This document shows, in pieces, positions 11 through 57,816 of a stretch of 64,000 nucleotides of DNA (position 1 is the first letter of the stretch; each line of letters opens with the position of its first letter). Below the pieces are notes generated by a model, which searched no databases, had not been told where the DNA came from, and saw nothing but the letters and a program-made list of their open reading frames with translations. Both the position numbers and the translations under genes were made by a program. Source of the stretch: an uncultured archaeon (lineage in GTDB: Archaea; Asgardarchaeota; Jordiarchaeia; Jordiarchaeales; Jordiarchaeaceae); NCBI GenBank assembly GCA_964510585.1, contig CAZECW010000004.1, positions 3,606-67,605 on the forward strand, in the 5' to 3' direction.

Positions 11-403
11 GTGAAGCTGAGAATTGTTAAATCCGATGAAACTGTTATGAGACCAGAGGAAGAGATACCCTTAGAAATAGTTAAGTTTTCCCCAGCAAAA
101 CTAGCCACGGAAACAGCGGACCTTGTAACAAACTTCATCACATTAATAGACTGCGTCCAATTAGGAGACTACGCCCGGGTGGATAATATAGTCCCCATAA
201 TGGACGACATAATACTCCTCATGGAAAACTACACAGGACTGAATGACAAGAACTACTGGGTTTACAAAGAGATAACCGCTTGGCGTGACAAACTCAAAAA
301 CGAGCCTCCAGACCTTGTAATTGACTCCGAAGACGCCAAAAAGATAGAATATGACGCGGTAAGGTGGTTTAAAGACTTCCGCCAAAGAATAAGACAATTA
401 TAG
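11..403 (+). CDS. Hypothetical protein, possibly 5'-partial because the reading frame is open to the window edge. It sits immediately upstream of the ESCRT-II-like gene.
   Basis: ORF with GTG start at 11 and open frame back to position 2. No recognisable motif. A short spacer of 17 bp (404-420) separates it from the next gene. Confidence 0.35.
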   Translation: MKLRIVKSDETVMRPEEEIPLEIVKFSPAKLATETADLVTNFITLIDCVQLGDYARVDNIVPIMDDIILLMENYTGLNDKNYWVYKEITAWRDKLKNEPPDLVIDSEDAKKIEYDAVRWFKDFRQRIRQL

Positions 404-3058: not shown

Positions 3059-3661
3059 TTTTTAAGTCCTCCTTCCTAGATTGGACTTTCTTCTAAAATT
3101 TTTGTTTCACTTATATAAGATTATCTATTTACAATTGTATAGTACCACGGTAAAAGTCGAAGTGAACCAAAAAAGAGGAAGTATGGATTTATCCAAGGTG
3201 GATTAAGGAAATACCAAAGAAAATTTTATTTATCTTAGAAATTAAGACAAAAAAGATAATTTAACTAATAATATAAGAATAAGTCTTGTTGGCAGGGGAA
3301 TTATATAAATAATTATTATTTGTAATTATTTACATAAATATTAATAACTTAATAAATATTTATATGTACCTAAAACATAACTAATAAGCTTAAACCTTGA
3401 GAAAATTCAAAATTGTATATAGAGCAGAACAATTTTAACCCAATAAAAATTGTCGTAAGAATCCTGCTTGATGGACAAAACCGTTAAAAGAAAAAACTAA
3501 ACGTATAATCTTATAAACTAAGTGGTTTAGGCAAATAATTTTTAAATATAAACAAAAGCACATATAAGTCAATTAAACATCCCCCCCAAAAAAAGACTCT
3601 AAAAAGGTAAGAAGATGGGAAATCCATCCCCAACAAAGGGAAACGCAACGTAGCAAAAACA
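3059..3661. promoter_or_regulatory. AT-rich 600-bp divergent intergenic region, presumably holding promoters (TATA/BRE-like) for the permease (-) and glycoprotein (+) genes.
   Basis: Very AT-rich with many TTATATA/TTTAAATA-like boxes, lying between divergently oriented genes. Confidence 0.4.
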
Positions 3662-6600: not shown

Positions 6601-6664
6601 TATACGCGTCTTTTATCCAGACACTCTAATCAAAATCCACAAAAAACTACTGAGAAAAACATGA
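3662..6664 (+). CDS. Large secreted or surface (S-layer-like) glycoprotein with an N-terminal signal/anchor and a C-terminal TM anchor.
   Basis: 1000 aa. N-terminal hydrophobic segment ASAILIICVILFLTTALIV. About 55 N-x-S/T sequons. C-terminal hydrophobic helix IATIVFWLLIIVLIFI followed by a basic tail KIHKKLLRKT. Confidence 0.6.
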   Translation: MIEMENRKKASAILIICVILFLTTALIVTNTIPLTLPPSQNNSLQLKENGTYATIQINGIYYNVTWFEISNEIINQTIENSVVGTNTYYLNITWNNYVNRSVVMSFNTTNDTIYFNGVQLYIGYNNSPPALRVELRNGTQQNSKWVPSNETILYEEYSIDNFTQEANWATLLNETSILLVPSHTYFLLLRLNETTGDDNSSYYYWRCTPDTGDDSDGVDEGIALALEFEDVSDLNNSAFWADCADDYDCWMIMNFTKLQYTLSLQLPVNWTLSYLMVDVFNSTGSFFYHISNSISGNITGGTGSFNVTLPDGDRMCLAVIKFTEIRPVSWLTVIEGTRNSDGYARTVGNMSEAQRFRLPHDSNNLSIQILIRNTGLKENLTAEIWNATFVESVGSYNLTGKVVDLEVPYWNVTSDYNWLTLNFEGYFSEGDYFLVIHTKDWAGDPSSGPFYDWASHTSFYEIPPSEGYEIWTSENNHSNWNWQDMRDPYGHRYWHCMKVESYNSTDTRNISVWVNGKLVGDNWVWNDTVWIPVQKTQGDNVTFTLTSNMDFEYSLDYDIYYYNYTYDLNNETQFYVNDYPMSNSTQGYFTQIFTSSQLGYNSSTGLVELTFKAWNITSKEWISTSVNATISASMYYIENVSVSSATELNYTYVHSSDAAISLSQESLYIDYSNLNVYAVNTVQLNGTTLHGNWTDNTLTNKITVLKNAFNDTQIGQEILAGDNVTITVNFYSIVNIESPTLPYIGEQVTLNITNVVNTPDYLNVTIIRPNGTIQTLNGTKLNYENWSVNFTPEETGKYIASITTQSTGGNIIRREVANRSVEKYYYVFTVYQLGLGLNKPDIVAEEPLSLGIPYNLQIWVKYLPFNSSETPQVNVNNIIVLLNGSKTINDPVFNSLTGFWELTIIWTSLGNLNITVNVTDDNGRTVVETFIVQVVYPKPPSPIPILSLMTTYAAIGQFDIDTLARIATIVFWLLIIVLIFIRVFYPDTLIKIHKKLLRKT

Positions 6665-12788: not shown

Positions 12789-13021
12789 ACACGCAGCTAT
12801 TCAAATTCTCTTGAAAATAGTAGCGCGAGAAAATTTAATATTTGTTATTTATCAGCATTTTTTACCAAACGTTTAAAACAGCCCTGTATCATCGTTCTGA
12901 TAACGAGAACACGATTCCGAAGACATTTTTACATATGGGAATGTTTGTTCCAAAAGGTTCTTAAGAAAAAGTATTGTTGCTACCTAAAACAAGGTTACTT
13001 ATTTGTTCGAGGTGGTAGAGT

Positions 13022-15031
13022 TTGAGTAGGATGCTGATTACTTCCGCGTTGCCCTACGCTAATGGTGACCTTCACATAGGACATGTTTCCAGCACATATA
13101 TTCCCGCTGACGTCTATGCGAGATTTTGCAGATTAAAAAAACACGACGTGGTTTTTGTATGTGGAAGCGACGACCACGGGACACCAATTTCAGTTGCAGC
13201 ACGCGAAGCAGGACGCACCCCCCTCGAACATGTGGATTATTATCGCGAAAGACAACTAAATGATCTTAAAGCATTAAACATAAGTTTTGATAACTATTAT
13301 AAAACTCACAGCGAAGAAAACCGAGAAATAACAGAATACTTTCTCCTAAAACTGAGGGAAAAAGGCTACATCTACCAGAAAGAAGTGAACGAGTTCTACT
13401 GCGAGAAGGACAAAACCTACCTTCCCGATAGAATGATAAAAGGCACCTGCCCCCACTGCGGAGCAGAAGACCAGTACAGTGATGCATGCGAAGTTTGTGG
13501 AAGAACAATTGAACCAGGAGAAATACTTAAGCCCTACTGCATTCTATGCGGCAATCCTCCAGTAACCAAAAGGGAGAAACACTTCATATTCAAGCTCAGC
13601 GTATTTTCCGAGAGATTATACCAATGGTTAACATCGGACAAAACAGGTAAAAACTTTCCTAGAGATGTTGTAAACTACGTACTTCAATGGATAAAATCGG
13701 GACTCCAAGACTGGGACATCACCCGAGAGGACTACTGGGGATTCAAACTACCATACCCTGATGCAAAGGAAAACCAATACGTGTATGTATGGTTCGATGC
13801 ACCCATAGGGTACATAGCTTCCACAATTAATTGGTGTAGAAAAAATAAAGCAAACTGGGAGGATTACTGGAAGAGGGAAGATAGTTTCATCACTCATTTC
13901 ATTGGTAAGGATATAATATACCACCACTTTCTTTTTTGGCCAGCCATGCTTATGGGAACCGAGGAAATAACGCTCCCCAAAAAATATGTGGTGAACGGAT
14001 ACCTCACCCTCGAAGGTTTAAAGATGAGCAAAAGCCGAAAATGGCTGATTCCCCTAAACTACATTTTGCAAAAATACCCGGCAGATTATGTAAGATTTTA
14101 TCTGGCCTTCAAAGCCGCAAACACCATAAAAGACAATAACTTCAGCTGGGAAGAATTTCAAGAAAGAATAAACGGAGACCTTGTGGACAACATTGGAAAC
14201 TTCATCCATCGAATTCTCCACTTCATCAACAACCGATACGACAGCAAAATACCAGAACCCTCAGATTTCGACGAACAGGACAGAGAATTTATCCAATTAA
14301 TTCAAACCGCCCCCGACGAACTCGCCACATATTATGAAGAATGCGACCTCTCAAAAGCCATCAAAAGAATAATCGAACTCTTCAAATTTGCCAACAGCTA
14401 CTTCTCAGCAAAAGAGCCCTGGAAAACCATAAAGGAAAACCCTAAACAAGCAAAAAATGCACTCTACCTCTGCGCCAACTTCCTCCTCTCATCATCCATA
14501 CTCCTTTATCCAATAATACCCCAATCAGCAGAAAAACTCCAAAAACTACTAAAGATAAAACCTGAAAATTGGGACACCGCAAAAGAGCTCCTACTAAAAC
14601 CCGAACACCAAATCCAGAAAGCAGAACCCCTATTTGAAAAAATTCCAAAAGAAGAAATAATAAAAGAAATAGAAACACTAAAACAACAAACAGAACAAGC
14701 AGGAAAAAAAGTAGAAGTAGACATCAGCGAATTTAACAAGCTAGACATAAGAATAGGAGAAATAATCTCCGCAAAACAACTACAAGGAGACTTAATCCAC
14801 ATAATTGTTAAAACAGAACCCAACAGGCAAGTAAACATAGTAGGCAAACTCGGAGGAAACTACAAACCCCAAGAACTATATGGTAAAAAAGTGACAGTGA
14901 TAACAAATCTGAAACCAAAAAAAGTTCAAGGAATACTATCAGAAGGCATGCTCCTAGCAGCAATAGACGGAGAAAAGATATCACTAATAGTACCAGACAA
15001 GGATATCGAAACGGGAAGCAAGGTTAAATAA
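13022..15031 (+). CDS. metG: Methionyl-tRNA synthetase with a C-terminal EMAP/Trbp111-like tRNA-binding domain.
   Basis: HIGH motif (DLHIGHVSS), KMSKS motif, CPHC…CEVCG zinc knuckle, and a C-terminal OB-fold tRNA-binding domain. Confidence 0.95.
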   Translation: MSRMLITSALPYANGDLHIGHVSSTYIPADVYARFCRLKKHDVVFVCGSDDHGTPISVAAREAGRTPLEHVDYYRERQLNDLKALNISFDNYYKTHSEENREITEYFLLKLREKGYIYQKEVNEFYCEKDKTYLPDRMIKGTCPHCGAEDQYSDACEVCGRTIEPGEILKPYCILCGNPPVTKREKHFIFKLSVFSERLYQWLTSDKTGKNFPRDVVNYVLQWIKSGLQDWDITREDYWGFKLPYPDAKENQYVYVWFDAPIGYIASTINWCRKNKANWEDYWKREDSFITHFIGKDIIYHHFLFWPAMLMGTEEITLPKKYVVNGYLTLEGLKMSKSRKWLIPLNYILQKYPADYVRFYLAFKAANTIKDNNFSWEEFQERINGDLVDNIGNFIHRILHFINNRYDSKIPEPSDFDEQDREFIQLIQTAPDELATYYEECDLSKAIKRIIELFKFANSYFSAKEPWKTIKENPKQAKNALYLCANFLLSSSILLYPIIPQSAEKLQKLLKIKPENWDTAKELLLKPEHQIQKAEPLFEKIPKEEIIKEIETLKQQTEQAGKKVEVDISEFNKLDIRIGEIISAKQLQGDLIHIIVKTEPNRQVNIVGKLGGNYKPQELYGKKVTVITNLKPKKVQGILSEGMLLAAIDGEKISLIVPDKDIETGSKVK

Positions 15032-16344: not shown

Positions 16345-17715
16345 ATGGCACAAACACAAAAAGGAGATAAGTACGAAGTCAAAGACCTAAAACTAGCACC
16401 AGGCGGACGAGCAACAATCGAATGGGCAGAATCAAGAATGCCCGTACTTATGCAAATAAGAAAAAGATTCCAAAAAGAAAAACCACTCAAAAACACCATA
16501 GTAGGAGCATGCCTCCACGTAACAAAAGAAACAGCGGTACTTGCAAAAACTCTAAAAGCTGGAGGAGCAGAAGTCTACCTTTGCGCCTCAAATCCCCTAT
16601 CAACACAAGACCATGTAGCCGCGGCACTAGTAGAAGAAGGAATAAACACATTCGCTTGGAAAGGCATGGACTACGAAGGCTACTACCGAGCAATAGCCAA
16701 CGTTATTAAAGGAGAACCGAACATCACACTAGACGACGGCGCCGACCTAGTATCAACCCTAATCAAGCTAAAAAGAGGAGAAACTGGCGAGGAAATCAAA
16801 ATAGTCAAGAAAATTCTCGGAAGCCGTACAGACTGGGCGGACAAAGTATGGGCCGGAGCCGAAGAGACCACAACCGGCGTAATCCGCCTCAGAGCCATGG
16901 CAAAAGATAACGTGCTATTATACCCAATTATAGCTACAAATGATACCCCCACGAAATGGGAAACATAAACACCACCCGTGTTTAAGCCCAAATTTGACAA
17001 CTTGTGGGGAACTGGACAAAGCACCATAGACGGTATACTAAGAGCAACAGCAGACCTCATCGCGGGCAAAATTTTTGTAGTTGCAGGATACGGTCACTGC
17101 GGTAGGGGTGTAGCGCTAAGAGCAAAGGGACTAGGAGCGAGAAGAGTCATCATCTGTGAAATAAATCCCCACCGAGCACTAACAGCCGCCTTAGAGGGCA
17201 TGGAAGTAATGCCCATGAGCGAAGCCGCTGAGGTAGGAGACATTTTCGTAACCGCCACGGGATGCAAGAATGTTATAAATGCTGAACATATGAAAAAGAT
17301 GAAAAACGGGGCAGTAATGTGTAACACAGGCCACTTTAATGTGGAAATAAATATACCTGATTTGGAAAAAATAAGCGTCAGCAAGAGAGAAATAAGACCA
17401 CTAGTCGATGAGTACACACTGGAAGATGGAAGAAAAATCTATCTGCTCGCCCAAGGCAGGCTCGTGAATCTTGCATGTGCCGAAGGACACCCAAGCGAAG
17501 TTATGGACATGAGCTTTTCGGATCAGGCTTTGGCTGTGGAGTGGATTGTTAAGAATAAGGATAAGCTGTCTGGGATGGGTAGTGTGGTTTTGGATATTCC
17601 TGAGGAGATTGATAGGACTGTTGCAGAGTTGAAGTGTAAGGCTATGGGTCTTAGATTGGATGTTTTGACCCCAGAACAGGAAGCGTATTTGTCAGGTTGG
17701 GCTGAAGGAACCTAG
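16345..17715 (+). CDS. ahcY: Adenosylhomocysteinase (S-adenosyl-L-homocysteine hydrolase), interrupted by an in-frame TAA at 16966-16968 inside a 30-nt insertion.
   Basis: Colinear with SAHH throughout: EETTTGV, the NAD-binding [18 protein letters not shown]. Where archaeal enzymes read TKYLFDN, this sequence reads [16 protein letters not shown]. Both halves are in the same frame. Confidence 0.85.
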
Positions 17716-18384: not shown

Positions 18385-19503
18385 ATGGATACTGAAGAAA
18401 AGGTTCAGCGTGTCTTACGTGGCTTGAGTGAAGTTATCACTGTCGAGGATCTACGGAATTTATTTGAGGTAGACAACCACCCTAAGGCTTACATAGGTGT
18501 TGAGCCTTCTGGATAAACCTTTTAGGCTTTCTAGGGTTCCAGAATATTTCATTTGGGCTGGGTGGTTTGGGCTTGGAAGGTTCAGGATTTGATTCTTTGC
18601 GATGTGGATATGCATGTTCTCGAAGCAACTTGGCATGCGAAGATTAACGACAAATTTGGTGGAAACATGAATACCATACACACCTGTGCAAAGTACATTG
18701 AACACTGTTTACAAGCGTTGGGTGTAGATATTAGCAGGGTTCATTTTCCAAAGGCTGAGGATCTTATGGATAGTTTGGATTATTGGGCGACAGTGATAAA
18801 CATTGCTAAAAACACTACGCTGGCCCGCATTAAGAGAGCTATGAGCATAATGGGCCGCAAAGTAGATGATGCGGAATCTGATTATTCAAAAACACTTTAT
18901 CCTTGCATACAGGTAGCTGACATCTTATACGCCGGTTTTAAGCTGTGTCTGGGCGGAACCGACCAGAGAAGAGCTCACATATTGGCGAGGGAGTTGGCTC
19001 CTAAGTTCGGCTTGGATTGGAAGCCGGTAGCTATTCACACACCTCTCCTCATAGGCCTAGAGGGATTATCAAGGATGGAGTTTGAGGATATGAGCGAGGA
19101 TGTTTTAATGGAGGCCAAGATGTCGAAATCCAAACCTCAAACAGCAATTTTTATACATGATAAGCCAGAGGAAATTAGGAGTAAAATTTCTGCTGCTTTT
19201 TGCCCACCGAAACAGGTAGAATTCAATCCAATAATGGAAATAAATAGGCTTCTTCTCTTTTCCAGAGAAGGTTTTACTCTTCATGTAGAACGTGAGGAAA
19301 AATTTGGAGGAGATATAGATTTTGAGAGCTTTGATGAATTGAAATCTGCTTACAGCGCCGGTAATCTTCATCCTCTGGACTTGAAACGGGCTACTGCGGA
19401 GGCCCTCATTGAACTGTTGAAAAATGTTAGGCAACATTTTGAAAAGAATAGTGAAGCCCGTAACCTTTTGGAAACATTAAAAAAGGCTACAGTAACCCGG
19501 TGA
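18385..19503 (+). CDS. tyrS: Tyrosyl-tRNA synthetase (archaeal/eukaryal type), interrupted after the EPSG motif by a 30-nt insertion carrying three in-frame stops (TAA, TAG, TAG).
   Basis: The N-terminus (…AYIGVEPSG) and the downstream ORF (…HLGW…KMSKS…) are in the same frame and colinear with M. jannaschii TyrRS. 10 extra codons sit between EPSG and HLG. Confidence 0.8.
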
Positions 19504-25374: not shown

Positions 25375-26406
25375 TCATTTCCTCAGCACTATAATTTGGC
25401 GTGTTAAACTCTTGTGTACCGGTATCAAATGTTTTTCTATTATTCGAAAACTTGTTCCCAAAATAGATTCGTCAACATTGACTGTTAAGGGGGTGCCCAT
25501 ACAGATGTATCCTGCTGAACTAGATAGTTTATCTAATTCCTGTAAGAAGAATTCAATTAGTTTTTCGGGGCGGACGCCTTTGGTGGAGGCCGATCCTCCG
25601 TAGGGTGGATCCGTTGCTATGCTGTCAAATTGGTTGAGGGGGAGGTGTTTGGCGTCTGAAAGTATAATGTTCCAGTTGACTATGTTGAAGTGTAGGAGAT
25701 TCCTTTTTGCACCTTTAACCATTTTTTTGTCTATGTCGGAACCTATGGTTTTGCAACCCATGAGGCCCGCCTCAATTAGAAGACCTCCTGCTCCACAGAA
25801 TGGATCCAAGAAGACTCCTTTGGGTCGAGCTCGAGAGAGATTAACCATAGCTCTGGCGAGATGGGGATTCATGGAACTGGGAATAAAAAAAGGCCTGAAT
25901 TTTGCCTTCCTGAGACCTAAAGCTTTCCTTTCGGATTCCCTGACACTTATCCCAAACAGGAATATGTCTTCCGTTAAAACGCCATAAAATAACTTGTCAG
26001 GATTTTCAAGATTGGCCCTTGCCCCCACCCTCCTATGAATGAGGGCGCCAATTTCTTTTTCTAAAAGAAGTGAGCTCACTTCCGGTGAATAATTTTTTAT
26101 GCGTTTCACTCTAACGGCAAAGGTTTCTTTGGCTGAGATGTGTTTCTGAAAATCTACGTCTCGAAGTGAAGCCATTATCTGGTTGAAGTCTGCTTCACAT
26201 TTAAGCAGTGAAATGCAGCATCTATGAACCATTGCGGCACGCTCAGCTATTCTTTGGCAACTCTCCTCCTCTGCTTTCAAAAGTAGTACTTGGTCATATT
26301 TTTCTGCTTTGTAGTCCATGTTCAGGCTTTCAAGGATTGCTAAGCACTCAGCAGCAGCTATTGTTTTGGTTTCTCCAGATAGAATGTAAAAATGGTTTTT
26401 AATCAC
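25375..26406 (-). CDS. THUMP-domain tRNA (guanine-N2)-methyltransferase (Trm11/TrmG10-like).
   Basis: N-terminal ferredoxin-like/THUMP region. SAM-binding motif DPFCGAGGLLIEAG. Catalytic DPPYG. Confidence 0.7.
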   Translation of the reverse strand: MIKNHFYILSGETKTIAAAECLAILESLNMDYKAEKYDQVLLLKAEEESCQRIAERAAMVHRCCISLLKCEADFNQIMASLRDVDFQKHISAKETFAVRVKRIKNYSPEVSSLLLEKEIGALIHRRVGARANLENPDKLFYGVLTEDIFLFGISVRESERKALGLRKAKFRPFFIPSSMNPHLARAMVNLSRARPKGVFLDPFCGAGGLLIEAGLMGCKTIGSDIDKKMVKGAKRNLLHFNIVNWNIILSDAKHLPLNQFDSIATDPPYGGSASTKGVRPEKLIEFFLQELDKLSSSAGYICMGTPLTVNVDESILGTSFRIIEKHLIPVHKSLTRQIIVLRK

Positions 26407-27290
26407 TCTTTTAACGCCTCAGCGATAATAGGAGCTACGGACACTAAGCTAACATCGCTAGGAACTGTGTCGGTTGCAATTATTTCAGTTACTCCTGCAT
26501 TAAGAATCCTAAACCGGGAGTCCCCCACCAAGATGGCGTGAGTGCATGCGGCATAAATTTTAGCGGCGCCTTGATTTTTGGCAATTTCGATGGCTTTAAC
26601 CATGGTTCCGCCAGTACTGATAATGTCATCCACTACGACCACATCGCGGTTGATGACATCAATTTCTCTACTCTTGGTTTCGATTTCACCTGTGTGTTTA
26701 TCTCTAAACTTGCTGAGAACCACATATTCAGCGCCTAAAAATTCTGCAAGACTTTTAGCCCTATTCATAGCTCCTTCGTCTGGGGAGATAATGACAGGTT
26801 TCGTCAGTTTATACTTGTTTAAGTATTCGCCCAGAAGGGGAATAGCGCTTAAGTCTCTTACGGGAATACTGAGATAATCAAAAAGTCTCTTGTTATGAAT
26901 ATCGACTGTTAGTATTTCGTCGGCTCCCGCATTCTGAATTATTTTACAAATTATTTTTCCACTCACCGCTTCGCCGGGAAGAAATCTTTTGTCTTGGCGG
27001 GCGTAAGCAAAATAGGGAATAACTGCGGTAACCTTTGATACACCCAATTCTTTTAGAGTTTCAATTATGAAACAGAGCTCAACTATACCTTGATCAGGGT
27101 TCGGGGGTATCGTGGATTGAACCACAATAGCGTGGCGGTTTTTTGGCTCCTCTTTAATTCTAATGTATTTCTCGCCGTCTGGGAAGGTCTTAAACTCAAT
27201 GGGAATAGCTCCACATTTTAAACATCTAGAGATACGCAGACCCAAGAGTTGCGAACTAGGACCAGGCACTACTACTTTTTCGAGCAACAT
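26403..27290 (-). CDS. prs: Ribose-phosphate pyrophosphokinase (PRPP synthetase), copy 1.
   Basis: PRPP-binding loop VVVVDDIISTGGTM, typical N-terminal domain, 295 aa. Confidence 0.9.
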   Translation of the reverse strand: MLLEKVVVPGPSSQLLGLRISRCLKCGAIPIEFKTFPDGEKYIRIKEEPKNRHAIVVQSTIPPNPDQGIVELCFIIETLKELGVSKVTAVIPYFAYARQDKRFLPGEAVSGKIICKIIQNAGADEILTVDIHNKRLFDYLSIPVRDLSAIPLLGEYLNKYKLTKPVIISPDEGAMNRAKSLAEFLGAEYVVLSKFRDKHTGEIETKSREIDVINRDVVVVDDIISTGGTMVKAIEIAKNQGAAKIYAACTHAILVGDSRFRILNAGVTEIIATDTVPSDVSLVSVAPIIAEALKE

Positions 27291-27495: not shown

Positions 27496-28554
27496 GTGTA
27501 TATGTATCTAGAAAAAGTTCCAATTTTGGTGAAACTTTTGCTAAAGGAAACAATGATTTACGAGAAGCTTGATAATAACATGGTAAAATGTGGGATTTGC
27601 CCCCACCGCTGTCTAATTAAACCCGGAAAGAGGGGAAAATGTAAAACAAGAGAAAACATAGATGGAGTTCTCTACTCCCTTGTTTATTCCTCAATATCTG
27701 CTATGGCTAATGACCCTATTGAGAAAAAACCTCTGTTCCACTTTTATCCAGGAAGCACCGCATTTTCTATATCAACGGTGGGATGTACTTTTCATTGCCA
27801 CCACTGCCAAAACTGGAGCATCTCTCAGGCAGAGCCCGAATCTGGCTTAACTAGAGAGTTTTCACCAGAAGAAATTGTCTCAGCAGCTAAGAAAAGTGGT
27901 AGCCGTTCTATCGCATACACCTATAATGAGCCCTTCGTTTTCTACGAATTCGTCTACGATACTGCAAAGATTGCACATAAAAACAACATAAAAAATATTC
28001 TAGTTACAAACGGGTATGCTACACCTGAGGCCATAGAAAAAATAGCTCCCCTAATAGATGCAGCAAACATTGATGTGAAAGCGATGAGCGAGGAATTTTA
28101 CAGAGAGATATGTGGGGCGCGGCTTCAACCAGTATTGGACGCCGTCCTTCTTATGAAGGAGAAGGGCATTCATATAGAAATTACTTATCTTATAATCCCT
28201 CAGAAAAATGATAGCGTAGATGAGATAAAGAAATTTGTAGAATGGGTGAAGGGCAATTTAGGACTGGATGTACCTATCCATTTCTCCAGGTTTTATCCCC
28301 ATTACAAAATGAAAAATCTTAGCCCCACCCCAGTTCAAACAGTTATCAAAGCTAGAGAAATTGGGCAAAAAGCAGGACTGCACTACGTCTACTGTGGAAA
28401 TATACCGGGAGAGGGAGAGAACACGTATTGCTATAATTGTAACCAATTAATAGTTGGACGATGGGGATACGTAATAGAGGAGTACAAACTTGCCAAAGGC
28501 AATACGTGTCCAAACTGCGGAGCGAAGATAAACATAATTGGAGAATGGGAATAG
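27496..28554 (+). CDS. Radical SAM enzyme, AmmeMemoRadiSam/PflX-like, with a C-terminal zinc ribbon.
   Basis: KCGICPHRC…DPIEKKPLFHFYPGS…GCTFHCHHCQNWSIS gives the CxxxCxxC cluster. C-terminal CYNCN…CPNCG. Confidence 0.75.
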   Translation: MYMYLEKVPILVKLLLKETMIYEKLDNNMVKCGICPHRCLIKPGKRGKCKTRENIDGVLYSLVYSSISAMANDPIEKKPLFHFYPGSTAFSISTVGCTFHCHHCQNWSISQAEPESGLTREFSPEEIVSAAKKSGSRSIAYTYNEPFVFYEFVYDTAKIAHKNNIKNILVTNGYATPEAIEKIAPLIDAANIDVKAMSEEFYREICGARLQPVLDAVLLMKEKGIHIEITYLIIPQKNDSVDEIKKFVEWVKGNLGLDVPIHFSRFYPHYKMKNLSPTPVQTVIKAREIGQKAGLHYVYCGNIPGEGENTYCYNCNQLIVGRWGYVIEEYKLAKGNTCPNCGAKINIIGEWE

Positions 28555-28568
28555 TTCCCCCCAAATGT

Positions 28569-29718
28569 TTAGGATACTGGGCGCCAGATAATTCCTAGTT
28601 CATCCGCAGTTTTATATGCTTCCTCCATTTCATCGCTAGTCACTCTTCTACATATATCTGCATATTCCTTCCTTCTTGGTACCTCGTGTGTTGGGTGATA
28701 CTGTTCCATTATGTTAACTAAAGCTTTAGGACAATTTTTAGCCACCCATTCAAGCACTGGTTTGGTGCAACATTCAACGTGTCCCGGTAAAACTAGGTGC
28801 CTTATTATCATACCAGATGTTCCAGGTTCCACGGTCTCATCATAGGCCATCTTGTGATTTCTTGAAACGACTTCCCAGTAGTTAGAAACTTTACTCAACC
28901 TCTCCGCGCATTGATTATTTCCATATTTAAAGTCGGGGAGCCAGAAATCCATAACGTCCAGTAAAAGCTTCATACATTCTTTGGAACAGTACATGTTAGA
29001 ATTCCATAGTTGCACAATGTTTGTTTTAGTTTCCCTGATGCCTTTTAAAATGTTGTAGGTGTTTGGAGTTGGATCTCCACCCACATAATTTATGTTTCTT
29101 GCACCTTCCCTCTTTAGATCTCTTGAGATTCGTGCAAGGCTCTCACCCGAAGTTTCTATACCGTTTTTTGGATTTGTGGAAATGTCATAGTTCTGACAAA
29201 ACACGCATTTAAAAGTGCAACTGGAGAAGAAGAATGCACCGCAAGAGCCTTAACTCTTAAGCGTTTGTGCCTGAAGGAACTAGAGGGGCCTCTTCCCCTG
29301 TATGTATGAATGCTGAGGATACGTAAGACTCGCTACCCAGTTTACAAAATCCTTTTTCACCCTCCAGTCTATTAGCTCCACACCGTCTTTCACAGAAATG
29401 ACACTGTGATAGAATCCTTCTTGCTAGTTCCACCTTAACATCCAAATAAGAAATCTTTGGCGAATCCATGTTTCCCAGTTCCAGTTCACCTGCATCAATC
29501 CGCCTCAAGACACTTCTAAAAACACCACTTATTCTATCATGTTCATCCCAAAGCTTGCCCAGCTCCGCATCTAGCTCCACATCTACACCTACTTTTAAAG
29601 CTATCATAAACTTAGCATAAAGCCTATCATTGAATACCTCATAGTACCTCCAAAGCCTCTCACGAACTATACCGTTATCCCAAACACGGTAAGCATCTGG
29701 GCGAATTAGTTTCCACAT
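28569..29718 (-). CDS. PflX-like radical SAM protein, split into two ORFs by a roughly 13-nt stop-containing insertion just upstream of the CxxxCxxC motif.
   Basis: The upstream ORF ends …HTGEEAPLVPSGTNA*. The downstream frame reads GSCGAFFFSSCTFKCVFCQNYDIS (radical-SAM cluster). The frames differ by +1. The stop in each frame lies beyond that of the other, so the two cannot be joined by a single indel. Confidence 0.6.
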
Positions 29719-39665: not shown

Positions 39666-40550
39666 TTAGGTTAAAGCTTTGGCTAGGGTTCCTGCTATTT
39701 CTACGACGGATATCGGTGAGGGAATGGTGGTTGTTCCAATAACGGTGTAGGCTCCGGCGGTGTATATTTTTTTGAGGGCATTGTCTACAAGTAAGGGGTG
39801 GGTGCACGCGGCGACTATTTTTTTTGCGCCTTTCTTTTTGAGGGTTTCGATGGTTTTTGCTATTGTTCCTCCTGTGGAGATGATGTCATCTATTATTACT
39901 ACGTCCCTGTTTTTTACTTCTAGTTCTCTGGTTGTTATTTCGACTTCTGTGGAGCTAATTCTCTTTTTTTCCAGAACGTCGTATTCTGTTCCTAGTTGTT
40001 CTGCGGCGAGTTTGGCCCATTGTTCGGCTTCTTCATCGGGTCCTATGATTAGTGGTTTTTGTAGGGAAAGGTTTGCTCCTATGTAGTGTGCTATATCTGG
40101 AACCGCTGTGAGGTTTTTTGCGGGAATTTTGAATATTTTTCTCATATCGTCTACTCTGTGAAGGTGCATGTCGACTGTGAATATTTGGTCTGTTCCCACT
40201 GTTTCTATGAGTTTTGAAACGGTTTTGAGGCTTATTGCTTCTCCGGGGTTGAATCTTTTGTCTTGTCGTGCGTAGGCGAAGTATGGGATTACGCCTGTTA
40301 CCTTTTTTGCTCCTGAGTCTTTGAGTGCTTCAACCATTAGGAAGTATTCCATTAGGTATTCGTCGGGATTTAGATACATTGATTGCACTACTACGGCCTC
40401 GACGCCGTTGAGATCTCCTTCTATGCGGATATACTTTTCTCCGTCTGGAAATCTTTTGATTTCTGTCCCGAGGAGAGTAGCATCCAGTTCTCTTGCTATT
40501 TTTATCGCTAAAACATATGAGGAGGATCCGCCTATTATTACTTTATTCAT
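39666..40550 (-). CDS. prs: Ribose-phosphate pyrophosphokinase (PRPP synthetase), copy 2.
   Basis: VVIIDDIISTGGTI PRPP loop. Paralogous to 26403-27290. Confidence 0.85.
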   Translation of the reverse strand: MNKVIIGGSSSYVLAIKIARELDATLLGTEIKRFPDGEKYIRIEGDLNGVEAVVVQSMYLNPDEYLMEYFLMVEALKDSGAKKVTGVIPYFAYARQDKRFNPGEAISLKTVSKLIETVGTDQIFTVDMHLHRVDDMRKIFKIPAKNLTAVPDIAHYIGANLSLQKPLIIGPDEEAEQWAKLAAEQLGTEYDVLEKKRISSTEVEITTRELEVKNRDVVIIDDIISTGGTIAKTIETLKKKGAKKIVAACTHPLLVDNALKKIYTAGAYTVIGTTTIPSPISVVEIAGTLAKALT

Positions 40551-41382: not shown

Positions 41383-42441
41383 TTATTCTAGAATCTGGTT
41401 GTCTAGTTTTCCATAATTTTTCTGGTATCTTGCCTTAAATTCTTCGATTGTGAATTTGTGATTTTGGGTTCCCTCATGTTCTACGGCGTATCCTCCACAC
41501 ACGGCTCCCATTTGGCATGCTATTTTTAGTTCTTCTATAGATAAATCTTCTAATCGGGGGTTAATTTTTGAAAGTCCAGAAAGTAGTCCGCCTCTGAAGG
41601 CGTCGCCTGCGCCTGTGGGGTCAACTAGTTTGGAAATTTTTACTGCTGGTATGTTGATTTGTTCATTGTTTAAGTAGATGGAGCAGCCGCGTTCACCGCG
41701 AGTAATGATTGTGGCATCTATAATGTCATCTAATTTCTTTTGCAGCTTGTTTTCAACCAGCCCTGCTTCGTAATCGTTAACTATGAGTATTGATGCCCCG
41801 CTAATAAATTTGTAGAGGTCCTCTGGCGCGAAATTGTAAATCATTTGACCTGGATCTGCGATGAATGGGACGCCTAGTTCTTTGAATTCTTTGGCGTGGC
41901 GGCACATTGTTCCTATGGGGTTGGGTGAAACTATGCCCAGTTCAACGTTTTTGTTTTTCACTATCTCTCTTATTTTTATGTTGCAAGTGTCTTGAAGGGC
42001 GCCTGTGTGAAAAATGGACATTTGGTCTCCTATTTTGCTCGTTACAATGTAGGCTTCAGCGGTGTCTTCCTCTTCGCACACCACTAATCCGCTTAAATCT
42101 ATTCCACATTTTTCCAAGTGTTTTTTGTAATCGCGACTAACGAAATCTTTCCCAACACAAGATATTGGAAGAGGATTACCATTGGTTAGTTTCATATTGT
42201 ACGCTATGTTTAGAGCGGTTCCGCCAAATGATACCTTCTTATTTACTAAGAAGGAAAAGCTGATTCGGGTGTCCCTGCCCCTTTTTTCAATGGCGTTTCT
42301 AAAAATTTCATCAAGAGTTTCTTCAGTAAACGCTATCACATCAAACGCCGCAGATCCCGAAATAGCAACCTTCTCCTTTTTCGGCAAGGTGGTCAGGCCT
42401 TCACTTCGTATTTCTTGAAAAACATTAAATTCTCTAAACAA
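41383..42441 (-). CDS. PfkB-family carbohydrate/nucleoside kinase.
   Basis: C-terminal PfkB signature DPTGAGDAFRGGLLSGL. Confidence 0.75.
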   Translation of the reverse strand: MFREFNVFQEIRSEGLTTLPKKEKVAISGSAAFDVIAFTEETLDEIFRNAIEKRGRDTRISFSFLVNKKVSFGGTALNIAYNMKLTNGNPLPISCVGKDFVSRDYKKHLEKCGIDLSGLVVCEEEDTAEAYIVTSKIGDQMSIFHTGALQDTCNIKIREIVKNKNVELGIVSPNPIGTMCRHAKEFKELGVPFIADPGQMIYNFAPEDLYKFISGASILIVNDYEAGLVENKLQKKLDDIIDATIITRGERGCSIYLNNEQINIPAVKISKLVDPTGAGDAFRGGLLSGLSKINPRLEDLSIEELKIACQMGAVCGGYAVEHEGTQNHKFTIEEFKARYQKNYGKLDNQILE

Positions 42442-44144: not shown

Positions 44145-45740
44145 TTGGATATTGTTATCAAGAACGCAAGAATTATTGATGGAACTGGAACCCCCCGGTT
44201 TAAAGGAGAGATTGGCATTACAGGAGAAAGAATAGTGGAGATAGACAAAGGCATATCTACCAGAGGGGATAGAATCATCGATGCTAAGGGTCTTATTGTA
44301 ACTCCTGGCTTTATTGATGCGCACACGCACTCAGATGCGACTTTATTAATGGAAAGAAGTGCGCTGAATTATATTAGTCAGGGTGTGACCACAAATGTTA
44401 TTGGAAACTGTGGCTTATCTGCAGCCCCATTAAATAAGAGAACTGTAAAAGACCTGCTTACACTTGTAGCGCCAGATTTTAAAGGGGATCCTACCGAGAT
44501 GTGGACCAGTTTTGGGGGATATCTTGACTTTTTGACATTTGTGAGTACAGCCATTAATGTTGTTCCACTTGTGGGGCATAACACCATCCGAATTGCTGTG
44601 ATGGGCATAGAGGAGAGAGATCCATCTGAAGATGAACTTGAAGAGATGAGGAGATTGACGGAACAGAGTATGAGGGAGGGGGCGTTTGGTCTATCAGCAG
44701 GTTTAATCTATGTACCCGGTATTTTCACCAGAAAAGAGGAGTTAATAGAGCTCTGTAAAGTAGTTTCCAGGTATGGGGGAATATTCACTATTCATATAAG
44801 AGGAGAGGGGGATACAGGAGTACAAGCCATAAAGGAAGCCATAGAAATAGCAAGAAGGGCGCAAGTGCCCTTAGAGATTTCTCACTTTAAATCAGAAGGG
44901 AAAAGAAACTGGGGGAAGGCTCAAGAGAGATTGAGGCTGATTGAGAGTGCCAGGAAAGAAGGTATCGATGTGACTGCTGATTTTTATCCTTATACTTTCG
45001 CTTTGACATTTTTGCATTCCCTTTTTCCGACTTGGATTTTCAGAGATGGTTTGGAAGCTGTACCTGAAAAATTGAAGAATCCAACTATTCGTGAACAATT
45101 GAGAGAGTATTTTAGGCTTGCTGGTGATGTTGTGGGAATCTCTGATGTGGAGGATTGGCGCACCGTTGTTCTATCTAATCCCAGTAACCCAAAGTATAAA
45201 GGTAAATCAGTATTGGAAATTGCGGGAGAACAGCGTAAGGATATAGTTGATACCGTTTGTGAACTAGTGCAGTCAGAGGGCTTATCGCTGGGAATTCTTC
45301 TGCTCTGGATGAGTGAGGAGGATGTTGATGTAATAGCAAAGCACCCGCTAATTATGGTGGGCTCCGATGGGGCTGTTGTTACTTCACCAAAAGAAATGAT
45401 TCACCCCCGATACTACGGCACTTTCACAAGAGTTTTAGGATACTATGTTCGGGAGAAAAAGCTTATGGGCCTTGAGGAAGCTGTACGAAAGATGACATCG
45501 TTACCAGCTCAGAGATTCGGACTAAAAGATAGAGGTGTCTTGAGGGAGGGAAACTATGCGGATTGTGTCATCTTTGACCCAGAAAGAGTGAAAGACTGTG
45601 CCACTATAGATGAGCCGAACAAGTTGTCTGAGGGAATAGAATATGTTATTGTTAATGGAACCGTGGTATTTGAACATGGAAAATTTGCGGGGAAGTATCC
45701 TGGCAAGATTCTGAGGAAAAAGGTAAAGGAGAATTGTTAA
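44145..45740 (+). CDS. N-acyl-D-amino-acid deacylase (D-aminoacylase) family amidohydrolase.
   Basis: IKNARIIDGTG…PGFIDAHTHSD metal-binding start. TTG start. 531 aa. Confidence 0.8.
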   Translation: MDIVIKNARIIDGTGTPRFKGEIGITGERIVEIDKGISTRGDRIIDAKGLIVTPGFIDAHTHSDATLLMERSALNYISQGVTTNVIGNCGLSAAPLNKRTVKDLLTLVAPDFKGDPTEMWTSFGGYLDFLTFVSTAINVVPLVGHNTIRIAVMGIEERDPSEDELEEMRRLTEQSMREGAFGLSAGLIYVPGIFTRKEELIELCKVVSRYGGIFTIHIRGEGDTGVQAIKEAIEIARRAQVPLEISHFKSEGKRNWGKAQERLRLIESARKEGIDVTADFYPYTFALTFLHSLFPTWIFRDGLEAVPEKLKNPTIREQLREYFRLAGDVVGISDVEDWRTVVLSNPSNPKYKGKSVLEIAGEQRKDIVDTVCELVQSEGLSLGILLLWMSEEDVDVIAKHPLIMVGSDGAVVTSPKEMIHPRYYGTFTRVLGYYVREKKLMGLEEAVRKMTSLPAQRFGLKDRGVLREGNYADCVIFDPERVKDCATIDEPNKLSEGIEYVIVNGTVVFEHGKFAGKYPGKILRKKVKENC

Positions 45741-45784
45741 AGGACAAATAGTGTAGAGGCAGCATTTATTTTTGGGGTGTTAGC

Positions 45785-46864
45785 ATGAAGGTTAAGATAA
45801 ATGGAAAAGTTATGGAGTACCGCAATGTCTGGATGGAAAACGGCGTTGTTAACATGATTGACCAAACAAGGTTACCTTTCGAGTTTAGAATACAAAAAAC
45901 AAAAAATTACAGGGAAACTGCCGAAGCAATACGAAAAATGCAAATAAGGGGAGCCCCAGCAATCGGTGTAGCGGCATCATACGGATTAGTACAAGCTGCC
46001 CTAGAATTCAAAAATTTAGAGCCGAAGGAGTTCTGGAGAAAAATGGAAGAGGTTGCCCAAGAGTTTCTCAACACCCGCCCCACAGCCGTAGATCTACATA
46101 ACATGATGGAAAGGATGATGACGAGGATAAAAAAGGCGGGGAGCCCCCAACAATGCCTGCAAATTGCACTTAGTGAATCTCAGCTGATAGCGGAAGAAAA
46201 CGCTGAAGCATGTAAGAAGATTGGGCTCCTGGGCAGAGACTTAATTAAGGATGGGGACGGGGTGCTAACACACTGTAATACTGGCGCCCTAGGCACGGTC
46301 GATTATGGCACAGCTATAAGCATAATAAAGTTCGCTCACTATCAGGGTAAGAAATTCATTGTACTGGCAACTGAAACCAGGCCTTGGCTGCAGGGACGCC
46401 TAACTGATTGGGAGCTAACACAGGAAGACATTGAGCACTACATTATAGCGGATTCGGCTGCGGGGTACTATATGGATAAGGGGGATGTCCAAATTGTGTT
46501 GGTTGGCGCTGACAGAATACTGCCAAACGGCGACGTTATAAACAAGATTGGTACACGCACACTGGCAGTACTGGCACATGAAAACAATATTCCCTTCGTA
46601 GTGGCTGCACCAACAACCTCAATAGATCTTTTTCCAAAGGCTGAAAACATTAAGATAGAAGAGAGAGACACCAAGGAAATAACCCACATAAAGGGGTATA
46701 ATGAGGAAACAAAGGAGTTACAAACATTAAGACTCTACTTAACAGACTGGGTAAAGAACCCCGTATTTGATATAACTCCTGCAAAATATATTTCCAAAAT
46801 AGTTACCGAAAACCAGATCATTGAACCACCATACGATCTTAAAACGCAGCTCAAAAATGAATAA
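45785..46864 (+). CDS. eIF-2B alpha/beta/delta-like protein: S-methyl-5-thioribose-1-phosphate / ribose-1,5-bisphosphate isomerase (MtnA/e2b2 family).
   Basis: N-terminal …IDQTRLPFEF…GAPAIGVAASYGL and C-terminal GADRI…NGDVINKIGT are the family hallmarks. Confidence 0.8.
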   Translation: MKVKINGKVMEYRNVWMENGVVNMIDQTRLPFEFRIQKTKNYRETAEAIRKMQIRGAPAIGVAASYGLVQAALEFKNLEPKEFWRKMEEVAQEFLNTRPTAVDLHNMMERMMTRIKKAGSPQQCLQIALSESQLIAEENAEACKKIGLLGRDLIKDGDGVLTHCNTGALGTVDYGTAISIIKFAHYQGKKFIVLATETRPWLQGRLTDWELTQEDIEHYIIADSAAGYYMDKGDVQIVLVGADRILPNGDVINKIGTRTLAVLAHENNIPFVVAAPTTSIDLFPKAENIKIEERDTKEITHIKGYNEETKELQTLRLYLTDWVKNPVFDITPAKYISKIVTENQIIEPPYDLKTQLKNE

Positions 46865-47427: not shown

Positions 47428-48282
47428 ATGACAAGGAAAGAAGCCGTGTTTGTACCTATAGGCGTTTCCAAAGAAGAAGTTGAGGAGTTCTTACCGGTAG
47501 AAATAGGTATCCTTGGTGGAACAGGAAACTATGACCCCGCAATATTTGAGAAACCCAAAGAAATTAAGGTGTACACGCCTTACGGAGCTCCATCAGACAA
47601 TGTCATTATTGGATTGGTGAAGGGGCGTAAAGTGGCTTTCCTAGCAAGACATGGTAGGCACCACTCAATACCGCCCCACCAGATTAACTACAGGGCTAAT
47701 ATCTGGGCATTCAAAAGCCTCGGAGTTACAAGAATCTTTTCCCCTGCTGCCTGTGGAAGCTTGCAACCAGAAACAATTAAGCCGGGAGAGTTCGTGATTG
47801 CCACGCAGATTTTTGATAGAACCTTTGGACAGAGGAAGGACACCTTCTTTGAGGGGGGAGTTGTGGGCCATGTGGAGTTCGCAGACCCCTTCTGCCCTGA
47901 GCTAAGGAAAATAGTCATTGACACTGCCCACGAGTTAGGTCTCAAAATACATGAGGAGGGTACCTATGTTTGCATAAATGGTCCAAGGTTCAGCACTAGA
48001 GCGGAAAGTCTCTTCTACAAGAGCCAGGGATTTTCAGTGGTGGGGATGACCTGTTACCCAGAATGTGCTCTGGCGAAAGAGGCGGAAATTTGTATGGTTA
48101 ACATTTCGATGCCCACCGATGTAGACGTTTATGGCATAGTGCCTGTTAACGCAGCAGCGGTGGCGAAGAGTATGAGAGAGAACATAGCCAATGTAAGAAA
48201 ATTATTATATACGGCTATAGAGCGAGTGCCAAAGGAACGAAAGTGTAAATGTAGCAGAGTTCTAGATCTTGCATTGTACTAA
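47428..48282 (+). CDS. mtnP: 5'-methylthioadenosine (purine nucleoside) phosphorylase.
   Basis: IGILGGTG N-terminus, FSTRAES, VGMT motifs. 284 aa. Confidence 0.85.
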   Translation: MTRKEAVFVPIGVSKEEVEEFLPVEIGILGGTGNYDPAIFEKPKEIKVYTPYGAPSDNVIIGLVKGRKVAFLARHGRHHSIPPHQINYRANIWAFKSLGVTRIFSPAACGSLQPETIKPGEFVIATQIFDRTFGQRKDTFFEGGVVGHVEFADPFCPELRKIVIDTAHELGLKIHEEGTYVCINGPRFSTRAESLFYKSQGFSVVGMTCYPECALAKEAEICMVNISMPTDVDVYGIVPVNAAAVAKSMRENIANVRKLLYTAIERVPKERKCKCSRVLDLALY

Positions 48283-49843: not shown

Positions 49844-51493
49844 TTACTTTTTGGAGTATACAATCTCTCCGCCCACTATGGTCATTTCCACCTTTATTTC
49901 ACTTATTCTGTTGGCTGGTACATTTAAGGGGTCGTCTGAAAGTACCACTAAATCTGCAAGTTTACCTGTCTCAATTGAACCCTTTATTTTTTCTTCAAAA
50001 GAAGCATAGGCTGCACCCAAAGTATACATTCTAATCGCCTGCTCCACTGATACCCTCTGCTCAGGAATGAAGGTGTAGTTGGAGGCTACCTGTCTTAAAA
50101 CTGCAGCCTGTATTCCCAGCAATGGATCCATAAGCTCTACTGGGCAATCAGACCCTGCTGCTAGTATGATTCCCTCCTCCAACAACTTCTTGAAGGGATA
50201 GACGTATTTGGCTCTCTTTTCTCCTACACGGTCAAGCATCCACCGTCCGTCAGAGACAATAAATGGAGGCTGAACAGAGACAACCACTCCTAATCTTTTC
50301 ATTCGCTGTATTAAATCTTCATTTAAAACTGATGCGTGCTCAATGCGGTGGCGATGGTCTTTTTTTGGTTTCTCCCTTAAGGCTTCCTCTAAAGCGTCTA
50401 AAGCTACTGTAACCGCTCTATCACCTATGCAGTGTATTGCCAACTGGAAACCTGCCAGATGAGCCTTCTTGACTATTTCACGGAGCTTCGCTTCATCGTA
50501 AATCAGGATTCCTCGATTTCCAGGGTCGTCGCTAAAAGGTTCGAGCATTGCTGCGGTGTGTCCTCCAAGACTACCATCCAGAATAATCTTTATCGCTCCA
50601 ATTTTTAATTGGTGGTTTCCGAACCCCGTGTAAAAGCCAAGGCTCATTATACTAGACATATAAGCTTCAGGAATTTGGAGATACACTCTTAGCGGAAGTT
50701 CTTCCCGCATCAGCAATGTTTGGAAAGCTCTTCCCTGGAAATCTTGAGCTTGATCCAGCAGGGGCATACAGTGTATTGAGGTTATTCCTTTGGTTACAGC
50801 CTCTTTGCAGGCAAGTTTCAAAGCTGATACGTAGTCTTCGTCTCCTAAGGATACAAGGTTGAGTATCATAAACCCTGCAGATTCACGCATTATACCTGTG
50901 GGCTCATTGGTTTCCGGATCTTTATCGATTTTTCCTCCGGGAGGAGATTCTGTTTCCGCAGTTATTTTTGCCAGTTCTAAGGCCTTGCTATTGACACAAC
51001 TGATATGGCCGCAAATACGCATAAGAGTAACTGGATTATTGGGAGCCGCTTGATCCAGATCCCATCTTGTGGGGAGCCGTTTCTCGGCTAGAATTGAGTC
51101 ATCCCAACCATGCCCCACTATCCACGCTCCCCTAGATTTTCTTTGAGCTTCTTTTCTTACCTTTTCCTTAATCTCTTTGATCGATTTCGCTCCTCTCAAA
51201 TCCAACATGTTTAGCATAGCTCCGAAACCCAAGATGTGTATGTGGCAGTCTGTAAATCCGGGGAGAACCGTCTTACCCTTAAGATTAACAATTTTAACCT
51301 TGTTACCAAGAAGGGATTTCATCTCCTCACTGGTGCCGACGCCAATAATTTTCCCGTCGCGGATAGCAACCGCCTCAGCCCTGGGTTTATTCGGATCCAA
51401 AGTTATAATATTACCATTCACCAAACAAAGACCTGAACGCTCAAAATTTTTAGGATCCATATAATTAAACCTCCTTTCATATACCGCCAACAA
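49844..51493 (-). CDS. Amidohydrolase-3 family metal-dependent hydrolase.
   Basis: 549 aa. GFTDCHIHI metal site. C-terminal amidohydrolase_3 architecture. Confidence 0.7.
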   Translation of the reverse strand: MLAVYERRFNYMDPKNFERSGLCLVNGNIITLDPNKPRAEAVAIRDGKIIGVGTSEEMKSLLGNKVKIVNLKGKTVLPGFTDCHIHILGFGAMLNMLDLRGAKSIKEIKEKVRKEAQRKSRGAWIVGHGWDDSILAEKRLPTRWDLDQAAPNNPVTLMRICGHISCVNSKALELAKITAETESPPGGKIDKDPETNEPTGIMRESAGFMILNLVSLGDEDYVSALKLACKEAVTKGITSIHCMPLLDQAQDFQGRAFQTLLMREELPLRVYLQIPEAYMSSIMSLGFYTGFGNHQLKIGAIKIILDGSLGGHTAAMLEPFSDDPGNRGILIYDEAKLREIVKKAHLAGFQLAIHCIGDRAVTVALDALEEALREKPKKDHRHRIEHASVLNEDLIQRMKRLGVVVSVQPPFIVSDGRWMLDRVGEKRAKYVYPFKKLLEEGIILAAGSDCPVELMDPLLGIQAAVLRQVASNYTFIPEQRVSVEQAIRMYTLGAAYASFEEKIKGSIETGKLADLVVLSDDPLNVPANRISEIKVEMTIVGGEIVYSKK

Positions 51494-56572: not shown

Positions 56573-56728
56573 ATGCTTGCAACTCCGTAAAATTTGATAA
56601 CGTTCATAATTTAGGTAACTATTTGAATTTTATGTGTTCAGATACAGAAAAATCCGAAGCTTAAATAAATTTAGTGCCACGCAGCTGAAACGAAACTAAA
56701 ATCGGGAAATAGTTACAGAATTAAGTTT

Positions 56729-57679: not shown

Positions 57680-57816
57680 AGGAACCACTTCAAACCCTTT
57701 ATATGTTTTACCAAAAAATTTCAAGGTTTTTATTGGTAATTTCACATTCCTTCATAAAAGCATTACCCCAAAATCAAATGAAAAACAAAATAATCCCAAA
57801 AAAGGCTACAAACTCT

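Follow-up and report, generated by a model that had tools for sequence, protein, structure and literature searches.

A radical SAM gene interrupted upstream of its cluster-binding motif

The window analysed here, a 64,000-nucleotide (nt) stretch of contig CAZECW010000004.1 from an uncultured Asgard archaeon, carries on its minus strand a gene for a PflX-like radical SAM protein that is broken at a conserved position by a short insert; all coordinates below are positions in this window. The upstream open reading frame (ORF; 29718..29257, minus strand) encodes 153 residues and ends in ...HTGEEAPLVPSGTNA followed by a TAA (29259..29257). The +1 frame has a TAA of its own, after which it reads GSCGAFFFSSCTFKCVFCQNYD... 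and stays open to the stop at 28569. The raw sequence at the junction contains two stops and a frame shift, and no single frameshift can join the two halves. A preliminary description of the locus had placed the split in a PflX-like gene, just before the CxxxCxxC motif, and had held that its stops could not be bypassed by a single frameshift; both points hold.

The C-terminal part corresponds to the radical SAM core (Pfam Radical_SAM, 6e-14, and Fer4_12). The N-terminal part matched no Pfam family, and the NCBIfam search of the gene returned no equivalog model at or above its cutoff. When both parts were conceptually fused and searched against 5.8 billion proteins, more than 5,000 homologues were retrieved at 100% coverage; those among the matches listed were 355-418 residues long, came from Asgard, Thermoproteota and other archaea and were labelled by several sources as 'putative pyruvate formate lyase activating enzyme'. 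The spliced protein reaches 65-67% identity to uninterrupted homologues. Judged by its N-terminal Cys-rich region, its CxxxCxxC radical SAM core and its full-length similarity to these proteins, the host gene is of the PflX/COG1313 type. The two closest protein matches (83-86% identity, Jordarchaeaceae) are themselves C-terminal fragments, and two fragments were annotated by the gene callers in every genome that carries the interruption.

The extent of the insert was defined by alignment to intact homologues, which at the junction read ...PLVPSGTIFFTSCTFKC... (uninterrupted ones are also given as ...GEEAPLVPSGTIFFTSCTFKCVFCQNYD...). The window has PLVPSGT upstream of the junction and (GA)FFFSSC downstream, so that 31 nt (29234..29264) are extra by this alignment, and the residues 'NA' upstream and 'GSCGA' downstream, counted as coding in the preliminary description, are part of the insert. 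The size suggested in the preliminary description, about 13 nt with 10-16 nt to be skipped, was too small. Removal of 7 nt recreates a TAA, the TTAAG being repeated, and with 10-16 nt taken out the product still exceeds the homologues in length.

The insert has the build of an archaeal bulge-helix-bulge intron

The 31-nt insert, ACGCTTAAGAGTTAAGGCTCTTGCGGTGCAT, separates two exons. Exon 1 (29265..29718, minus strand, 454 nt) begins with Met1 and ends after the first base of the Ile152 codon, and exon 2 (28569..29233, minus strand, 665 nt including the stop) holds the CxxxCxxC motif and the radical SAM core. Both the terminal TAA of the upstream ORF and the TAA of the +1 frame lie within the insert.

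Read on the minus strand, the layout is ...TCAG GCAC AA|A CGC TT AAGAG TTAAGG CTCTT GCG GTGC AT|T CTTC..., with vertical bars at the predicted cuts, and it has the geometry of an archaeal bulge-helix-bulge (BHB) motif. The central helix has 4 bp: its 5' strand GCAC (29267..29270, minus strand) is exonic, lies over the Gly-Thr codons and pairs in the minimum free energy (MFE) fold with the intronic 3' strand GTGC (29236..29239, minus strand), which is invariant in the seven genomes described below. Two 3-nt bulges flank it on opposite strands, AAA (29264..29266, minus strand; left unpaired by the MFE fold of every version) at the 5' side and ATT (29233..29235, minus strand; AAT in L002) at the 3' side. 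The inner helix and hairpin, CGC / TT / AAGAG-TTAAGG-CTCTT / GCG, occupy 29240..29263 (minus strand) in the same fold, with the AAGAG/CTCTT stem formed by 29258..29254 paired with 29247..29243. The MFE fold (-13 kcal/mol; z = -2.45 vs. shuffles) recovers the central helix, the 5' bulge and the inner stem, and folding all five sequence versions described below gives the same geometry.

In the cbf5 mRNA intron, cleavage is placed between the second and third residue of each bulge (PMC2738675). Applied here, this rule predicts cuts between 29265 and 29264 and between 29234 and 29233, removing 29234..29264 and leaving ACA A|TC TTC, in which the ATC (Ile) codon is restored in every genome. The exon-exon junction in the RNA would read ...GGCACAA|TCTTCTTC... 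and the predicted product, ...PLVPSGTIFFSSCTFKCVFCQNYD..., has 372 residues, homologue length and a near-consensus sequence; its junction peptide PLVPSGT|IFFSSCTFKCVFCQNYD (PLVPSGT|IFFSSC) aligns without gaps to the intact homologues.

The small AAGAG/CTCTT hairpin that the preliminary description had seen across the junction is therefore real and forms the inner stem of the predicted intron. Its general interpretation stood in part: the split, the hairpin, the view that the gene is not a pseudogene and the pointer to RNA processing were right, the size of the insert was not, and it named no mechanism, the GCAC/GTGC helix and the bulges lying outside the span that it had marked.

A strict scan for BHB motifs whose excision joins ORFs recovered the 31-nt element independently, its other matches joining neighbouring genes. 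One of these matches, 13021..13043 (plus strand), lies near the 5' end of the methionyl-tRNA synthetase (MetRS) gene and is a likely false positive, MetRS being complete from residue 4; another BHB-like match was found at 44184..44221 (plus strand), near the 5' end of an amidohydrolase gene. Of two permissive blind scans, one gave 4,146 motifs with 184 ORF joins for just the plus strand and the other 130 ORF joins; both were discarded as noise.

A further pairing could extend the motif outwards. The exonic stretch GGGGAAGAGG (Gly-Glu-Glu codons, around 29290..29299, minus strand) is complementary, G-U pairs included, to CTTCTTCTCC (29223..29232, minus strand), which lies directly 3' of the 3' bulge. 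A 10-bp pairing of the two is possible, with an 18-nt loop left over, and could be a long-range outer helix. The TTC TTC TCC codons downstream of the junction are invariant in the seven genomes, synonymous sites elsewhere being saturated.

The element is conserved in structure and its exons are under selection

The DNA of relatives (L001, L002-L005 and a scan of GTDB species representatives) was compared at the same locus. Seven Jordarchaeia/Freyarchaeia assemblies share the interruption and its exact site (the window, L011, L012, L013, L029, L001 and L002), among them the closed chromosome CP147778.1 (L029), and the same structure was present in three independent Logan read-set assemblies. 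The intron was absent from about 75 continuous orthologues of Baldr-, Odin-, Hod-, Heimdall- and Wukongarchaeia, Thermoproteota and Archaeoglobaceae.

Five distinct versions of the intron were detected, of 31, 31, 31, 28 and 32 nt. They share the invariant core GGCAC AAA CGC...CG GTGC AWT CTTCTTCTCC, which includes adjacent synonymous exon positions such as the third base of GGC, whereas the inner hairpin varies between species in sequence and length and is paired in each version. The lengths 31, 28 and 32 nt leave remainders of 1, 1 and 2 when divided by three, in each case the frame offset of the genome concerned. When the BHB-defined excision was applied to all seven genomes, it always gave exons of 454 and 665 nt, 372 residues and the same junction peptide.

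Purifying selection on the two exons is strong, with ratios of non-synonymous to synonymous substitution (dN/dS) of 0.03-0.08 at saturated synonymous divergence (pS 0.61-0.78). The further disruptions that an ordinary pseudogene should show had been named in the preliminary description as a point to look for; none was detected, the spliced ORF being full-length. Its other concern, a local misassembly, is removed by the same structure recurring in seven independent assemblies, including the closed chromosome. The shared site, the differing lengths and the low dN/dS therefore exclude, for practical purposes, both a decaying pseudogene and an assembly artefact.

Two more genes of the window carry introns of the same build

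The radical SAM gene had been described as the third in 13 kb with a short stop-bearing insertion, and two other interrupted genes are indeed present. By Pfam searches on adjacent ORFs of the same strand, the profile of S-adenosyl-L-homocysteine hydrolase (AdoHcyase) was found split between ORFs 16345..16968 and 16978..17715 (plus strand), and a tyrosyl-tRNA synthetase (TyrRS) ORF was found without its N-terminus.

In the AdoHcyase gene, the predicted BHB intron is 30 nt long (16963..16992, plus strand), in frame and with one TAA, between exons 16345..16962 and 16993..17715. Its layout is TGGG AA|A ...hairpin... CCCA AA|T and its fold has z = -2.68. The spliced protein would have 446 residues and aligns without gaps to PDB 7o5l through the TKWE| junction, which places the intron within the TKxxFDN motif.

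The intron predicted in the TyrRS gene is also of 30 nt (18515..18544, plus strand), carries three in-frame stops and interrupts the HIGH motif, with exons at 18385..18514 and 18545..19503 and the layout CTGG AT|A AACCTT...AGGGTT CCAG AA|T. The spliced product (362 residues) aligns without gaps to PDB 2cya through EPSGLFHLGW (YIGVEPSGLFHLGW). Close TyrRS relatives (78-100% identity, at least 10 clusters) are all N-terminally truncated fragments, interrupted at this same place; the nearest full-length TyrRS, from other lineages, has 58% identity, with none above this in the 5.8 billion proteins. The intron lies at the same site in L086-L089, with 30 or 31 nt matching the frame offset of each genome, and with a 5' bulge of AT|A or AC|A, both of which rebuild the Leu codon.

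For the AdoHcyase intron, the sequences of L086 and L088 start too late to cover the site. L086 (GCA_054385675.1) carries an extra 31-nt BHB intron at around 343..373, in the 3' part of AdoHcyase (AEGH|PSEVMD; layout GGCC AC|A ... GGCT CA|C), at a site where the AdoHcyase of the window is continuous; therefore, intron presence varies within the clade, by gain or by loss. In a further relative, L090 (JGI 3300031877), an 88-residue AdoHcyase remnant (2920..3186) lies upstream of TyrRS and is itself preceded, at a distance of about 1.7 kb, by a DDE transposase gene; local synteny with the window is broken there.

The four introns are all of 28-32 nt, begin with A and have a 5' bulge of the form A-N-A, while the helices and bulges are TGGG/CCCA with AAA/AAT in AdoHcyase, CTGG/CCAG with ATA/AAT in TyrRS and GGCC/GGCT with ACA/CAC in the extra intron of L086. 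A single cut rule yields full-length ORFs and gap-free junctions for the three genes of the window and for their relatives, whatever the length of the intron modulo three.

The probability of such motifs arising by chance was estimated with a shuffle model, in which a BHB was accepted in any of 19 registers around the junction of a random insert of the given length. A canonical BHB appeared with P = 0.023 for the radical SAM gene and with 0.007 and 0.048 for the other two, which puts the joint chance for the three genes at about 8e-6. None of the genes has a BHB in any register other than the one that restores the junction defined by homology.

An in-frame stop lies 0-3 codons past the 5' splice site of each intron of the window (29257..29259, minus strand; 16966..16968 and 18514..18516, plus strand). 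This early stop is kept in relatives, as GCT TAA or GCT TGA, and as GGA TAA in four of the five TyrRS versions. It could reflect selection for quick termination on unspliced mRNA, or it could be a by-product of the A-rich bulges.

Proposed splicing of the radical SAM transcript

The above results make it very probable that 29234..29264 (minus strand) is an archaeal BHB intron in the PflX-like gene, removed from the pre-mRNA by the tRNA-splicing endonuclease EndA and an RtcB-type ligase. The BHB reading is backed by the geometry of the motif, by the restoration of frame and junction, by conservation across genomes, by selection and by further introns of the same build; the cutting and ligation of the RNA, and the enzymes that would carry them out, we infer. 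In the pre-mRNA, exonic GCAC would pair with intronic GTGC in a central helix of 4 bp, which would have the 3-nt bulges AAA and ATT on either side and would stack on the inner hairpin. EndA, presumably an (alpha-beta)2 enzyme, would cut after the second nucleotide of each bulge, and the ligase would then join the exons as ...ACA A|TC TTC..., giving a 372-residue enzyme with an intact ...SGTIFFSSCTFKCVFCQNYD... cluster-binding region. On unspliced RNA, ribosomes would get no further than the TAA that lies three codons into the intron. Introns in 92-95% of the tRNA genes of Freyarchaeia imply an active splicing pathway in these organisms (PMC11291895).

Several observations weigh against this proposal. 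Splicing is predicted here from DNA sequence, not seen in RNA, and a spliced full-length protein from the clade was absent from the collection of 5.8 billion proteins. In a Pfam survey of the 64-kb window, neither an EndA nor an RtcB gene was detected. Covariation adds no support, the BHB helices being invariant: in the alignment of the TyrRS intron 96.9% of cells are paired and no pair is changed on both sides, and the alignment of the five radical SAM versions puts the variable inner hairpin out of register. Finally, the outer helix at the 3' bulge has only 1-2 bp (G-C, A-T), the motif being relaxed there, and the A-T pair is lost in relatives; every version has an inner helix, of 3-9 bp. 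A motif relaxed in this way is of the sort that broad-specificity EndA enzymes accept (PMC5829648).

Alternative explanations

The junction could also be crossed during translation, by a bypass of the type known from gene 60 of phage T4, in which ribosomes would take off at GGC (Gly) and land on GGT 28 nt downstream without any RNA processing. A hairpin and a nearby stop are present, the GGC and GGT flank a 31-nt step that gives PLVPSG-AFFFSSC, a product of the correct length, and in TyrRS the TAA directly follows GGA, as in gene 60. However, the resulting SGAFFF is non-consensus, whereas SGTIFF, the consensus, results from the BHB junction, and only in the radical SAM gene could take-off and landing at matching codons yield the correct product. 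In TyrRS, the correct frame offers no landing codon that matches, and the sole matching pair in AdoHcyase, AAA...AAA, would remove two residues of the catalytic TKxxFDN loop, where BHB excision gives a gap-free alignment instead. As bypass also leaves unexplained the geometry of a 4-bp helix with 3-nt bulges in all four elements, we consider it very unlikely.

Slightly less probable still is a naturally split enzyme, with the 153-residue N-terminal piece and the C-terminal radical SAM piece translated separately and then assembled. Split genes are known in some archaea, e.g. Nanoarchaeum, and here both pieces are conserved and called as separate genes. However, the first possible downstream start in the window (GTG at 29204) lies past two of the three cluster cysteines, and in relatives the called starts vary in position and are located within the insert, so that no start is conserved. 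The break would moreover interrupt the conserved SGTIFF strand midway, the HIGH motif of TyrRS would be cut, leaving a 43-residue peptide, and the conserved BHB geometry would be unexplained.

An ordinary pseudogene, destroyed by a small insertion and now decaying, would account for the two stops and the frame shift in the raw sequence and for the two fragments called in every genome, but it has barely any credibility left. The selection on both halves and the lack of any other disruption speak against it, as do the identical site in seven genomes, the invariant structured core and the differing lengths that always restore the frame; moreover, the essential TyrRS carries the same kind of insert.

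A sequencing or assembly artefact at the junction, which only the general possibility of such errors in metagenome-assembled genomes would favour, has a negligible probability, given that seven assemblies from different studies and the three Logan assemblies agree, and that they include a chromosome curated and long-read-validated by its authors (PMC11291895).

Other features of the window

The neighbouring gene at 27496..28554 (plus strand) is convergent with the interrupted gene, and this adjacency is kept in L001-L004. It had been put forward as a possible intact paralog, but it encodes an AmmeMemoRadiSam enzyme (TIGR04337, 368 bits), of a different family, and provides no back-up copy. Rfam and tRNA scans of the window returned nothing, and there is no tRNA gene in it.

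At the start of the window, Vps28-like (11..403, plus strand) and EAP30/Vps36-like (421..1155, plus strand) genes encode components of the endosomal sorting complexes required for transport (ESCRT), eukaryotic signature proteins typical of Asgard archaea. They are followed by an ORF of 1000 residues without a Pfam match (3662..6664, plus strand). A DDE transposase (325 residues) and an overlapping same-strand ORF of 121 residues (62011..63313, minus strand) form an insertion sequence element, possibly frameshifted. Genes of nucleotide and ribose salvage are duplicated (26403..27290, 39666..40550, 41383..42441, 44145..46864, 47428..48282, 49844..51493 and 55286..57745), the set comprising two each of phosphoribosyl pyrophosphate synthetase, IF-2B/MtnA-like protein, PfkB kinase and amidohydrolase, and one purine nucleoside phosphorylase-family protein.

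Comparison with known mRNA introns and significance

An intron in cbf5 has been described in Crenarchaeota (Aeropyrum, Sulfolobales and Desulfurococcales; Watanabe 2002, Yoshinari 2006, Yokobori 2009). Like the elements found here, it is a short BHB-type intron that interrupts a protein-coding sequence at a catalytic or conserved motif; its cuts are likewise predicted between the second and third bulge residues, and its presence also varies between related lineages (PMC2738675). The cbf5 intron lies within the codon of the catalytic Asp, its motif is often relaxed, and it is associated with a hetero-oligomeric EndA of broad specificity (PMC2738675). The hosts here are in contrast a PflX-like radical SAM protein, TyrRS and AdoHcyase, the lineage is Asgard and not Crenarchaeota, and several genes in 64 kb are affected as opposed to a single gene per genome. 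Moreover, splicing of cbf5 was shown experimentally, whereas the present introns have been read from genomic DNA.

The Haloferax volcanii mRNA HVO_1309 is also a substrate of the archaeal splicing endonuclease, as confirmed in vivo and in vitro (PMC7714728); this BHB intron, however, lies in the 5' untranslated region of a euryarchaeal mRNA, where no reading frame is broken. It was the only other mRNA substrate reported besides cbf5 (PMC7714728). According to a 2020 paper, BHB introns in coding regions had been documented in one archaeal gene family only, and a 2025 paper on splicing endonucleases still cites cbf5 as the sole example. No published BHB introns in protein genes of Asgard, Jordarchaeia or Freyarchaeia were found in a literature search that did not cover subscription-only papers.

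In Freyarchaeia, the BHB introns of the 92-95% of tRNA genes that have them often occupy non-canonical positions, and the paper describing them does not mention protein genes (PMC11291895). The non-canonical tRNA introns of Freyarchaeia and Atabeyarchaeia are comparable to the present ones in organism, presumably in enzymes, and in being short BHB elements at unusual positions. The difference is that here reading frames are interrupted, so that splicing would be a prerequisite for translation. The EndA of Asgard archaea is of the broad-specificity (alpha-beta)2 type with an L1 loop (PMC5829648).

A parallel outside the archaea concerns neither EndA nor the BHB motif, and no evolutionary link with it is claimed. 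In the IRE1/HAC1-XBP1 system, an mRNA intron is cut out at stem-loops and a tRNA ligase, which in metazoans is RtcB, seals the exons, with a change of frame, but the nuclease (IRE1) and the motif are different, the process is regulated by stress and there is a single target.

Most likely, therefore, the introns described here are coding-region BHB introns in new host genes and in a new lineage of evolutionary importance, the Asgard Jordarchaeia/Freyarchaeia. With three of about 55 genes of the window affected, these archaea may splice mRNA routinely when expressing their genes, and the same frequency would imply roughly 100 or more introns per 3.5-Mb genome. The chances are about even that endonuclease-dependent introns of about 30 nt have spread genome-wide into the protein genes of Jordarchaeia/Freyarchaeia, the essential single-copy TyrRS among them, with gain and loss still going on. 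The near-universal tRNA introns published for the lineage would then extend to the proteome; at least three unrelated genes in 64 kb are apparently affected, and TyrRS is indispensable to any cell.

A practical consequence concerns all public genomes of Jordarchaeia/Freyarchaeia, in which the callers split or truncate these genes, distorting estimates of completeness, reconstructions of metabolism and tallies of 'missing' essential genes. For the biology of the lineage, if the proposal holds, mRNA splicing would be an obligatory housekeeping step in a prokaryote without a nucleus, and in the archaeal group ancestral to eukaryotes. The organism would need a way to spare its ribosomes unspliced transcripts, to which the in-frame stops may contribute. 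These archaea would then offer a natural case of mRNA splicing that must coexist with coupled transcription and translation in the absence of a nuclear envelope, a matter central to hypotheses about the origin of the nucleus.

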